Positions 11,378 through 55,840 of a DNA stretch of 64,000 nucleotides are shown here, in pieces. This DNA is from Octopus vulgaris. Lineage: Eukaryota. The stretch is from positions 33,480,001 to 33,544,000 of the forward strand of contig OX597832.1 of assembly GCA_951406725.2 (NCBI GenBank), in the 5' to 3' direction. How positions within the stretch are numbered: position 1 is the stretch's first letter; the number at the start of each line of letters is the position of its first letter. The position numbers were made by a program, and so were the translations under genes. The notes under the pieces were generated by a model that worked only from the letters and a program-made list of their open reading frames with translations, did not search any database and was not told the DNA's origin.

Positions 11378-12798
11378 ATGTGAAAGTTGGATTGTGAAAG
11401 CACGTGGTTGAATATATAGAAAATAGTAAAAAGTGAAAAAACTACAGAAGGCTTGTTTTAAAAGGTTAAAAAATATATATATGAGTCAATATGTCTGAAG
11501 AATGTTATAAATTGTTTTCTTACAATGACATAGTTTAGAAGAAATGACCGGTTTCGCGTTCAGCTTTTCAAATTTCTTACATCGTTATGTTTACGTTGAG
11601 AAGAGTTATCGTTATGTTTATGTTGAGGAGAGTTCCAGATAAGGGGAGGTAATAAGTGATTTCTTCGGTGTAAGGGAGATAATCGTTTAAAATTGTTTGC
11701 ATTTCTTTTGGAGTGAATTTCTCTGTAAAATTATGTTGGAATGGTTAAGTTTGGGCTTGTATTTTTCAATGAAGAATGTTTCCTTGTTTAGTCTAATTTG
11801 TGTTGGTGTTCCGATAGCACATTGGTAAAATGGGAAGATTAAAAATTGTGGTAGTAGTTGCTTTGCGCATTTCTCAATGTGCTCACTAAAGGGTATCATT
11901 CTGTAATCTGTTGTCGATGCAGTGTGCATCTACGTCTGAGTGATAGTCCCGTGGACCCCACGTAGTTTTGGTGGCAGCCCAAGAATTTTATGACATAAAT
12001 TGTGTTTTCAGAGGCACAAGTAAAATTAGATTTGATCTTGAATTTCTGTCCCTCTTTGAAGAGGAATTCTGATCCTTCTAGCAGGTTTGGTCATGTTGCA
12101 CAGTTCGGTCTACCACATTTTTTACTTTTGCATCCGTAATTTCAGAAAACAATTTTGCCTTTGTGAGAATCTTTTTAAGTGATTTAGGTTGTTTGTAGCT
12201 TTTAATGATTTGGTGTATGTTTAGAATTTCCTTTAATTTGGGGTCCTTATGAAGTATTGGTAAATTCTGTGTGATGAAGGTGAAGGCTTCTTTGTTTCTG
12301 GGGTTGTATGTGGATATGTAAGGTAGTATTTTCGGGGAAGGTGTGTTGTTGTGTTGAACTTTTCTTAAAGTTTCTATGTTGATTTCTGTTGCACGTCTGA
12401 TCCCATCCTCTATGAGTTGAGCTGGGTAATGTCTGTCAATTAGGGTGTTTTTGAGTTCTTGCAGTCTAAAGTTCCTGGTATTTTGTTCTGACACTATTGT
12501 GCATATCCTTCTTGCAAGGTTGAAGGAGATGTTTGTTTTAGTGTGTCTTGGGTGGGATGAATTAGAAAGAAGGTATTGTTTGGCGTATGTGGCTTTGTAA
12601 AAAATGTCTGTTTCTATTTTAAGGTTAATTTTTTTAATTAGTATATCCAAGAATGGTAGCTCCTTTTGGTTGTATTCCATTGTGAACTGTATATTTGGCT
12701 TTATGCTGTTCAATAGGTTTTTAAATTTTAGGAGTTTATCTGTGTTTTCATTCCAGAGTATAAAACAATCGTCCAGGAATCGTTTCCAATTCTCTTTT
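11378..12798 (-). mobile_element. 5'-truncated Penelope-like element (Neptune-type): RT C-terminus, Cys linker, GIY-YIG endonuclease and 3' pLTR
   Basis: KENWKRFLDDCFILW (RT catalytic motif), LPFLDILI..TDIFYKAT..SSHPRHTKTNISFNLARRICTIVS, CGRPNCAT*P..FTCASENTIYVIKFLGCHQNYVGSTG..RRRCTLH..KETFFIEKYKPKLN; both ends abut (TA)n. Confidence 0.92.
11539..11578 (-). ncRNA. Minimal type I hammerhead ribozyme, U3-A8 core variant, in PLE pLTR
   Basis: Minus strand: AAGAAAU-UUGAAAA-GC ugaac GC-GAAA-CCGG-UC-AUUUCUU; 7-bp stem I, palindromic stem III, GUC cleavage triplet. Confidence 0.8.
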
Positions 12799-12827
12799 AT
12801 GTATTATACATATATAAATATATATAC

Positions 12828-13470
<643 letters not shown>

Positions 13471-13472
13471 TA

Positions 13473-13694
13473 TCAAAATGGATATGACTTACTTAATACA
13501 GATTCGATAGTCCTACCTGTATTTTCTACAACTTTGATTTTAAGACCAGTTGTGCGCAGGATTTTCTTAAATGACCTACTGAATTCGTTCCTAGGGGAAG
13601 CGTCAACAAACATTATACTGCGCAAATTTTTGTTATCATTCAAAGTAATATTTCTATTTCTTTTGCTGGTGTCCCTCTCTAACCTATCCCAGAA
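13473..13694 (-). mobile_element. Third PLE fragment (RT-EN linker, resembling Naiad/Chlamys-type)
   Basis: SIMFVDASPRNEFSRSFKKILRTTGLKIKVVENTGRTIESVLSKSYPF resembles the recalled linker motif LFVpaTP..eL....kikVVEk.G.tl...L..snPF. Confidence 0.6.
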
Positions 13695-13713
13695 CATACA
13701 TACGTACATACAC

Positions 13714-14056
13714 ACGTATAGGCGTGCACGCAAGCATACGCATGTACACATATGTATATGCACATATTTATATGCATAGATACATACACACATACATACA
13801 TACATACATACATACATACATACATACATACATACATACATACATACATACATACATACATACATACGTATAGGCGTGAACGCAAGCATACGCATGTACA
13901 CATATGTATACGCACATATTTATATGCATAGATACATACACACATACATACATACATACGTATAGGTGTACACGCAAGCGTACGCATGTACACATATGCA
14001 TACCCACATATTTATATGCATAGATACGTATATGAATACATACATACATACATACA

Positions 14057-14086
<30 letters not shown>
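13714..14086. repeat. Three-copy composite minisatellite with variable (CATA)n spacers
   Basis: Unit acgtataggcgtgcacgcaagcatacgcatgtacacatatg...atttatatgcatagatac at ~13714, ~13866 and ~13958. Confidence 0.9.
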
Positions 14087-14087
<1 letters not shown>

Positions 14088-14126
14088 CATGAAGTAACTG
14101 TTACTTTCTCAGATGCAGCACGGGAT

Positions 14127-14177
14127 TTTGTCAGTGAACAGGTCGCGGTCTAAAAGCGACGAAAATATTTTGACAAA
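14127..14177 (+). ncRNA. Minimal type I hammerhead ribozyme, G3-C8 core variant
   Basis: UUUGUCA-GUGAACA-g-GUCGC ggucuaaaa GCGAC-GAAA-AUAU-UU-UGACAAA: 7-bp stem I, 5-bp stem II, palindromic AAAAUAUUUU stem III; lies in a ~230-bp island (14087-14316) between microsatellites. Confidence 0.78.
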
Positions 14178-14317
14178 TTAAATTTAAATGTTGAACTGAA
14201 TCTAACGGCTTTTGTGTGTTTCTTAACTGGCTTATAAACACCTTCCACGCTGCAATTGTTTTTGTTTCGGCACACGACCTCAGATCAGGTCACTTGCTAT
14301 GCAAGTACATCTCCATA

Positions 14318-48445: not shown

Positions 48446-50389
48446 ATCATTATTACAATTGTTACTGATTTAATTCATGCTTCACACAAATCAGGCAAGT
48501 TCAGTAAAGGCTTATGAGAACAGCTTTCCTTTCTAACGATATAAAAATTATAGACTGATACTCTAATATTTGCGAAGTAGGAGTGTAGTGGGAACTGAGG
48601 GTAACTTTGCATCTAATATTTGAATTAGGAGGACATGTTCTAAATAAGAACCAAATAAAAAATGTGTAGAAAAGCACAATAATGTGGATCCCTGCATTTG
48701 GAACATTAATCAACTTCAATAATTTAAGTGTATTAAAAGTATTATTTATGCCAAGTGGGAGTCGATTGTCAAGATAAAATAAATAACGTAATAAATATTT
48801 AAACGGTTTTAATTCATCAAATATAAAACTTAATTACTTAATACATTTCACAAAAGTTGACCCAAGTTGCCTCCATGGTGGTCTTTGGCATGTTGGTAGA
48901 GTATGGAACACTGTCTTTTGTCGTCATATTGTCTCAAATGTTCATTTAGTCTTTCTGCAATTCTCCTAGATGTCTCCCCTATGTATGTCATGTTCATGTC
49001 TTTACAAGCATCTTCTATGCAGCTTATGCTGTAAAATACATACTGTAAACTAAATCTGCATCATATCCAAGCACCCAAAAGACCCAACACTCAGACAAAT
49101 ACGGGAGTACGTCCTTATAAATGAAACCTCCCCAATACTAAATAAGAAATATAAATAGTAGATATAATACCTCCACATCCACAGTTTACACAGGTAGAGT
49201 AGAATAGTTAGCAGACTGTTATGTAGATTTATGTAGATAGATGTATATATGTGTGTGTGTGTGTATGTATGCACGTATTTTTTTATGTTAGCATATGGAT
49301 ATGAAAATAAACAGATCAACATAGAGACGGATAGGTATATAGTTTATAAGAACAGACAAGCACACGTACGCAAATGGAGACTAACACTCATGATCATATA
49401 TAGACACACTTTACTCCACTCAAGGACAAATGGAGACACGAATCCACACATATAGAGATGCACATCGATCCATACATACAAACATGGAACATAGATGCAT
49501 AACACACACACGCACACACACAGACAGACATGCACACACAAGGAAACAGAGGTGTATACATATACAAACACGCTCATACACACGCATACATACATATAAT
49601 ATACAGAAACACGGACATGCAAGCACATGAATATACAGGCTACATACATACAGATGAACACACATAAATACATTAATACACATACATACATACATACATA
49701 CACACATACATACGTACATGCATGTATGCATAGGCACACACACACTGACCCACACACATGCGCACAAACAAACAAAAGGGAACGCAGTGTAAATAACGGA
49801 CAGAATCAAGACTATTGAAAAGGTTGCATTTGTATAAGAAAAGTGAGTGCGAAAAAGAAATAAATCGAAAATCGAAATCAAGTATTTGAAATTAAATCAG
49901 GTCGATCAGGGAATACCGAAGCCAACCAAAATGCGGAATCAACAAGAATCATAGGAATGTCAGAGACGCGCAGACGCTTTGTATATTTCAAATAATTTGA
50001 GGTGAATGATAAATAATATTCTTTTGAAAATTTATCTAATTAAACGTCGGCCATTTAATCAAACATGGAACATATTAATTACAGGTGAATGCAAGATGAA
50101 AGAAAAATCTTGCAGGTGTTTTGGAATAATAGAATTAAAGAATAAATGAATCATAATGGTTAGTGTTTCGGAAGAAAAAGTTATCGATAAATTATTTATT
50201 CGCAGACACTTTACTGCAACTCGGAGAGTAATGCATTTGTCGTCAGTTAAAATAAATAGGTTTTTCTCCTTATGGGAATATTTAAACAAATCGATTTCTA
50301 TATATCCACATAATATGCAAAAACAACAACCTAAAACAAAAGTCTATTGCTGTACTCATACACGTAGTATTTAAAGCTGTGAGAGTGGT

Positions 50390-55684: not shown

Positions 55685-55840
55685 TTATTAACATTATTTA
55701 CATTATTTACGTTTGACGGATATTTGTCCTCATCTTGTATGTTGTTAGCACAACGTTTCGGCTGATGTACCCTCCAGCCTTCATCAGGTGTCTTGGGAAA
55801 TTTTGAACCTAGGTTCTCATTCCTAAGGTATTTTTCGATG
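55685..55840 (-). mobile_element. Inverted copy of the HHR-bearing module
   Basis: Reverse complement of 56034-56180, about 21 differences in ~147 nt by manual count. Confidence 0.9.
55747..55792 (-). ncRNA. Minimal type I hammerhead ribozyme
   Basis: GaCAC-CUGAUGA-a-GGCUG gaggguacau CAGCC-GAAA-CG-UU-GUGcU; palindromic AACGUU stem III. Confidence 0.82.

Follow-up and report, generated by a model that had tools for sequence, protein, structure and literature searches.

Minimal hammerhead ribozymes (min-HHRs) have been described in the pLTRs of metazoan Penelope-like elements (PLEs), where a nucleotide left unpaired between 9 and 10.1 is a hallmark of the motif (Cervera and de la Pena 2014, PMC4209133). 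A natural U3-A8 variant of the core pair 3-8 has been published (PMC3088659, PMC4209133), and the G3-C8 pair has been studied in the laboratory: the double mutation C3G/G8C partly restored cleavage of a Penelope hammerhead that needs its protein (PMC11167929), the G:C swap was the sole core double mutant tolerated in a deep scan (PMC9901934), and a G3-C8 hammerhead was more active with G17 than with C17, a result given as 'data not shown' (PMC3884650). As far as the consulted sections of these reports go, the swapped pair is partly active and cleavage is dispensable for insertion in vitro (PMC11167929, PMC9901934, PMC8495972). In the literature that we searched, G3-C8 appeared in engineered mutants only and in no natural hammerhead; the supplements of surveys and older reports may hold a case. 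Here we describe a G3-C8 hammerhead motif in a 64,000-nucleotide stretch of Octopus vulgaris DNA (assembly GCA_951406725.2, contig OX597832.1, positions 33,480,001 to 33,544,000 of the forward strand), hereafter the window, and compare it with these systems.

Results

Sequence reading, folding and a descriptor together assigned positions 14127-14177 of the window (+ strand) to a minimal type I hammerhead motif with G3-C8, an inserted G after A9, a palindromic stem III and U17. Stem I has 7 bp (14127-14133/14171-14177). The 5' strand of the core (14134-14141, +) reads G3 U4 G5 A6 A7 C8 A9 (GUGAACA, 14134-14140), with G3 in 99/100 and C8 in 92/100 copies, and is followed by the unpaired G at 14141, which lies between A9 and G10.1 and was absent from the preliminary description of this DNA. 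The next segment (14142-14160, +) is a stem II of 5 bp (14142-14146/14156-14160; G10.1-C11.1) with its loop II at 14147-14155, and the last one before the predicted cut (14161-14170, +) comprises G12 A13 A14 A15.1 (GAAA, 14161-14164), the 6-nt palindrome AAUAUU (14164-14169), U16.1 and U17 (14170), the cut being predicted after 14170. The core, stems I and II, the GAAA, the self-complementary stem III and the UUU triplet listed in that description were all present; UUU is a poor cleavage triplet. The hammerhead core was complete at U4 G5 A6 N7, A9, G12 A13 A14, A15.1-U16.1 and H17, and the 3-8 pair was of the Watson-Crick type (G3-C8), its identity departing from the canonical C3-G8.

Folding of 14127-14177 recovered stems I and II with a modest z of -2.64 (4 of 200 shuffles were equally good), and the opposite strand of the motif folded about equally well. 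A descriptor admitting any Watson-Crick 3-8 pair, which was built from the published minimal consensus and drafted after the motif was known, matched it; with at least 4 bp in stems I and II, 0 comparable matches were obtained over 200 block-wise dinucleotide shuffles of the 64-kb window, and the loosest setting gave 3 matches over 200 such shuffles. The Rfam scan of the window at the gathering threshold produced 0 matches and the relaxed descriptor picked the motif up, in line with the idea that an inverted 3-8 pair is missed by canonical descriptors. Within the window, a repeat finder reported only microsatellites and Pfam found nothing significant in four ORF fragments. Among the entries listed for the assembled contigs of four runs from four organisms, which contain this stretch, no variant of at least 5% was seen at 14134 or 14139.

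The motif lies in the 3' terminal unique segment of a PLE that we call family A (14087-14314, +), of which about 14260-14314 forms a tail found on one arm only in many insertions; the ends of 58/100 copies fell near 14311-14315 and those of 27/100 near 14256-14260. Next to it are the microsatellite-rich 3' UTR of the family A element (13694-14086, +) and an inverted, truncated piece of the family A ORF, from the RT thumb to the linker (13421-13709, - strand), whose identity with the intact protein is 60-68% (tblastn E 8e-30; blastn 78%). The copy in the window is a truncated insertion, in which the inverted ORF piece 13421-13709 is joined to the 3' UTR at 13694-14314. A first look through the 2.8-Gb genome gave 1,994 candidates for the 230-nt island holding the motif, with identities of 92-94% in the best 40, and the protein search of the genome gave 6,187 candidates, many of them equal-scoring, with open frames of up to 1025 aa. 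The 1025-aa frame contains the YVDD RT motif, a CX3CxxC linker and a Pfam GIY-YIG domain over the cut-off; Pfam RT was unmatched for the family A protein and gave a weak match in the homolog P0081. The nearest named relative of this protein was an Octopus vulgaris protein (55%), a stretch of which was found at 100% in this genome.

In copies L013/L031 and L075 a GIY-YIG ORF was located upstream of the hammerhead on the same strand. Copy L075 consists of an inverted 3' arm with the tail, a 5'-truncated ORF, a 1-kb microsatellite-rich 3' UTR, the hammerhead and a tail-less end at (TA)n. The hammerhead is on the sense strand, about 1 kb past the stop codon and 145 nt short of the element end. On both strands of L075, allowing any Watson-Crick 3-8 pair, the descriptor matched two G3-C8 copies only, indicating that the G3-C8 motif is the one hammerhead of the element. 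A single ORF with RT plus C-terminal GIY-YIG, together with an inverted/tandem pLTR with a one-sided tail, are the features of an EN+ PLE; moreover, because long copies hold intact RT and GIY-YIG frames and the island is continuous with the ORF, family A is autonomous. The parent is a young, autonomous PLE with RT and GIY-YIG. The multicopy, Penelope-linked family of the preliminary description thus stood, and its non-autonomous, retrozyme-like character did not, since the island forms the 3' terminus of an autonomous element whose RT and GIY-YIG frames are intact. In addition, many short insertions, which are often arranged in tail-to-tail inverted pairs, begin immediately 5' of stem I, at about 14110-14126 (L237-L263, L297-L336); these starts may be due to RT that stopped or switched at the hairpin.

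Genome-wide, the core 17-mer was G3-C8 in 6,746 of 7,447 exact matches (a tally of arms, not of insertions), G3-G8 in 241, G3-A/U8 in 181 and non-G3 in 279, the last class taking in other families. A hand count in an older family A subfamily gave G3-C8 in 71/86 and G8 in 5/86. When 100 distinct family A copies, picked irrespective of the core sequence, were compared, per-site variation was about 1-2.5% in the stems and core, 25% in loop II and 4-7% in the flanks. Sites varying in at least 10% of these copies numbered 0/42 in the stems and core, 5/9 in loop II and 11/114 in the flanks (stem/core versus flanks, Fisher p 0.037, indicative only because the copies are related and not independent). 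The AAUAUU palindrome was present and conserved among the 100 copies; loop II differed among the subfamilies and stem II was constant. The copy number and G3/C8 conservation on which the earlier reading had depended were borne out, the island being multicopy, the stems kept among copies and G3-C8 the family norm. Judging by these copies, G3-C8 is the majority state fixed family-wide in family A.

The G3-G8 class (241) was about 14 times as large as C3-C8 (roughly 17, estimated from 6 of the first 100 rows). Copies with G8 made up 8/28 on contig C16 versus 0/72 elsewhere, and several insertions had G8 in both arms (L011, L012/L035, L013/L031, L023/L033 and L043); the two observations suggest that sources with an unpaired G3-G8 core probably transposed. 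G3-G8 was considered as an ancestral intermediate and discarded, because G3-C8 already predominates in the older subfamily and G8 is scattered over several subfamily backgrounds. An old C3-G8 branch inside family A was likewise discarded, 7/7 of the C3-G8 matches examined being from other families. Family A itself is too young for compensatory changes to be visible, and none was observed in it. One pattern search for a second G3-C8 family with a different stem II start found none (236 matches versus 120 in the control); 30 loci from this search were 14 mutated family A copies, the rest being tRNA-like SINE heads, LINE-like pieces and chance matches.

Two sister families, identified by searching the genome with diverged relatives, had a hammerhead in the same 3' UTR position: C3-G8 in family B, which is 55% identical to family A over the RT-EN region, and U3-A8 in family C, of which one of two copies was parsed. 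Each carried the inserted G, a stem II of 5-6 bp of the form G-U-x-x-C and U17. In a quick tree the three families formed one clade (SH-aLRT 100), with A sister to B and C. By eye, further and older families showed C3-G8 together with the GUCA/UGAC inner pairs that stem I has in family A and with a stem II that starts, as there, with GUCGC; three of them were put through the strict parser and none passed. Among 76 metagenome loci, 20 had sequence past the ORF end; a syntenic minimal hammerhead was found in 12 loci, which represent 9 distinct elements, and no hammerhead was parsed in 8/20. The core pair of the 9 elements was C3-G8 in 6, U3-A8 in 3 and G3-C8 in 0, with U17 in 6/9.

Stem II pairs changed compensatorily among families A, B and C (C-G versus U-A; G-C versus A-U), and this stem covariation extended to the metagenome relatives. 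As read from these homologs, the true 3-8 covariation is across sister families and not in the local cluster. Since the sister families and metagenome relatives were C3-G8 or U3-A8 and none was G3-C8, G3-C8 would most simply be the derived state of family A. Some of these relatives departed from the consensus at other core positions: U15.1-A16.1 replaced A15.1-U16.1 in one metagenome relative (L121:4972-5020), C was found at position 9 instead of the conserved A9 in family B (L200 3' UTR) and in another metagenome relative (L123 3' UTR), and four records of a single element (L142, L143, L145 and L146) had A instead of G12, the general base, in the 3' UTR.

The preliminary description had also noted three of the four Watson-Crick 3-8 pairs within 3 kb and had taken them as natural covariation in one locus. 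The three pairs are there. However, they belong to three unrelated families lying side by side, the C3-G8 copy is decayed and the motifs have no DNA homology (best cross-match E 0.08), so that their proximity does not amount to covariation within a locus and this claim was abandoned. The C3-G8 hammerhead (13386-13431, +; C3 at 13389) belongs to an unrelated repeat family and follows a fragment of another Penelope-type RT (12935-13279); it has A for G12 at 13417, a broken palindrome and a stem I 3' strand replaced by the adjoining insertion, and 14 other aligned copies of its family keep GAAA. In members of that family (L208-L221) an additional A separates stem II from G12, and the palindromic stem III is 8 nt long. 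The U3-A8 hammerhead (11535-11578, - strand; U3 at 11571) is intact and has C17 and a stem II of 2 bp. It lies within the 3' UTR belonging to the third family, likewise of the Penelope type (RT/EN remnants 11690-12803, - strand), whose core was intact at 15/15 loci. The families of the 11571 and 13389 motifs gave 1,705 and 810 candidates, respectively; the RT fragments of the two share 53% identity, and neither is more than barely related to family A. New PLE copies tend to land in or next to older ones (PMC6765202, in the part consulted), a habit that accounts for the cluster. Elsewhere in the window there are a fourth minimal hammerhead (about 55740-55795, - strand; C3 at 55787, C3-G8, 4-nt palindrome, U17) in another repeat, and head-to-head inverted pieces of a related GIY-YIG endonuclease region (48836-49149), about 52% identical to family A.

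Discussion

We consider it probable that the motif is the 3'-end hammerhead of a high-copy PLE that has G3-C8 in place of the usual C3-G8, and that it is a weak self-cleaver assisted by dimerisation or by protein, with its predicted cut after 14170. The chances that this cleavage activity is biologically meaningful seem to us about even. By established hammerhead chemistry the cut would follow U17 (14170), the site that the preliminary description had also predicted. Stem III would be supplied by a second copy, the AAUAUU palindromes pairing between the two, and the 3-8 pair would be retained for its geometry, the identity of the bases being immaterial there. G3 would pair with C17 and extend stem I; hence U17, which avoids this pair and was already common in the clade, may have permitted the swap and let it become fixed. 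When C17 was placed in the motif in silico, the G3-C17 pair formed (-16.0 versus -13.8 kcal/mol). Cleavage would process tandem or read-through transcripts and would not be strictly required for insertion.

It is also possible, although on balance rather doubtful, that the motif is a true hammerhead descendant that is catalytically dead, in which G3 and C8 are two mutations of a master element that hitch-hiked, while the stems would persist because they serve some other function (protein binding, RT pausing or template switching) or simply because little time has passed since the copies diverged. The spread of G3-G8 copies fits this explanation, as do the reports that hammerhead mutants of an Anolis element insert unimpaired in vitro and that no RNA ends were found at its cut site (PMC11167929, in the part consulted). 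So do the dimer energetics, which are unfavourable: the hammerhead-type dimer was predicted at -25.4 versus -24.8 for two monomers, -27.2 for an A14-U17 extended form and -30.6 for a swapped-stem dimer, so the predicted active dimer barely beats two monomers and is not the lowest-energy form. The 5' ends of copies showed no sharp peak at the cleavage site either, with at most a twofold, unconvincing excess at 14171. In a hand tally of the first 100 of 224 copies, 10 began at 14171 (3 by microhomology), 3-6 at neighbouring positions and 11 at 14175; copy starts numbered 56 at 14171, 24 at 14170 and 37 at 14167, with 262 at the 14173 control, which is confounded by a subfamily insertion. Against a dead motif, two neutral mutations would rarely restore a Watson-Crick pair exactly at 3-8, and all the other core positions (G5, A6, A9, G12, A13, A14, A15.1 and U16.1) keep their canonical identity in subfamilies whose loop II and flanks are different.

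That the motif belongs to a separate retrozyme-like family, non-autonomous and multiplied by rolling circle, is very unlikely. Most copies are short and devoid of the ORF, as such an origin would predict; however, in long copies the segment and the ORF form one unbroken stretch, and the copies show 5' truncation, inverted arms and a tail on one side. Non-LTR retrozymes are non-coding head-to-tail repeats with a hammerhead each, and at the loci examined the copies were dispersed, ORF-linked and inverted, with no head-to-tail array of the unit. Finally, that an AT-rich repeat resembles a hammerhead by chance, for which the modest folding z-score, the similar folding of the reverse strand and the lack of an Rfam match could be cited, is extremely improbable given the 0/200 comparable shuffles and the syntenic canonical hammerheads with matching stems in the sister families.

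Returning to the assisted self-cleaver, a family fixed for a compensatory swap in the core argues for selection on catalytic geometry, and the presence of C3-G8, U3-A8 and G3-C8 in three sister families that have almost the same scaffold offers a ready natural series in which such selection can be tested. Descriptor and Rfam searches miss thousands of motifs of this kind in one genome. More tentatively, and with a little less than an even chance in our estimation, an active retrotransposon lineage may have got across a valley of two mutations in the core and arrived at a working natural G3-C8 ribozyme by way of the pre-existing U17, so that within one octopus clade a single scaffold would now bear the core pair in three functional versions; many Penelope families taken as 'hammerhead-less' would then have been missed by descriptors.

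As far as its sequence indicates, this is a natural G3-C8 minimal hammerhead fixed in an autonomous octopus PLE, that is, a known ribozyme in a known host and not a new system. The element resembles the EN+ PLEs with C-terminal GIY-YIG and a Zn-finger-like linker (Neptune/Nematis; Craig et al. 2021, PMC8557442, in the part consulted) in its RT, CX3CxxC linker and C-terminal GIY-YIG, as well as in the inverted 5'-truncated arm, one-sided tail, (TA)n flanks and hammerhead near the 3' end. In contrast to those, the hammerhead core of family A is non-canonical, and the likeness is one of features. With the metazoan PLE min-HHRs, as described in the consulted part of PMC4209133, the octopus motif shares the type I order, the unpaired nucleotide 9/10.1, G10.1-C11.1, the palindromic 15.2-16.2 region, the location in a PLE terminal repeat and the predicted action as a dimer; it differs in having G3-C8 rather than C3-G8 or U3-A8, a longer stem I of 7 bp and U17. 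The natural U3-A8 covariants (Perreault et al. 2011, PMC3088659) are likewise a natural compensatory exchange at 3-8, whereas G3-C8, which is not among the variants listed in the accessible part of that report, places a purine at 3 and a pyrimidine at 8 and needs two transversions. The identical core pair has been engineered in a PLE context, as C3G/G8C in the hammerhead of Anolis Poseidon (Frangieh et al. 2024, PMC11167929), and also occurs as the G:C swap of the deep mutagenesis (PMC9901934). According to the consulted parts of both reports these swaps are partly active laboratory mutants, whereas the octopus swap is the natural majority state, present in thousands of copies.
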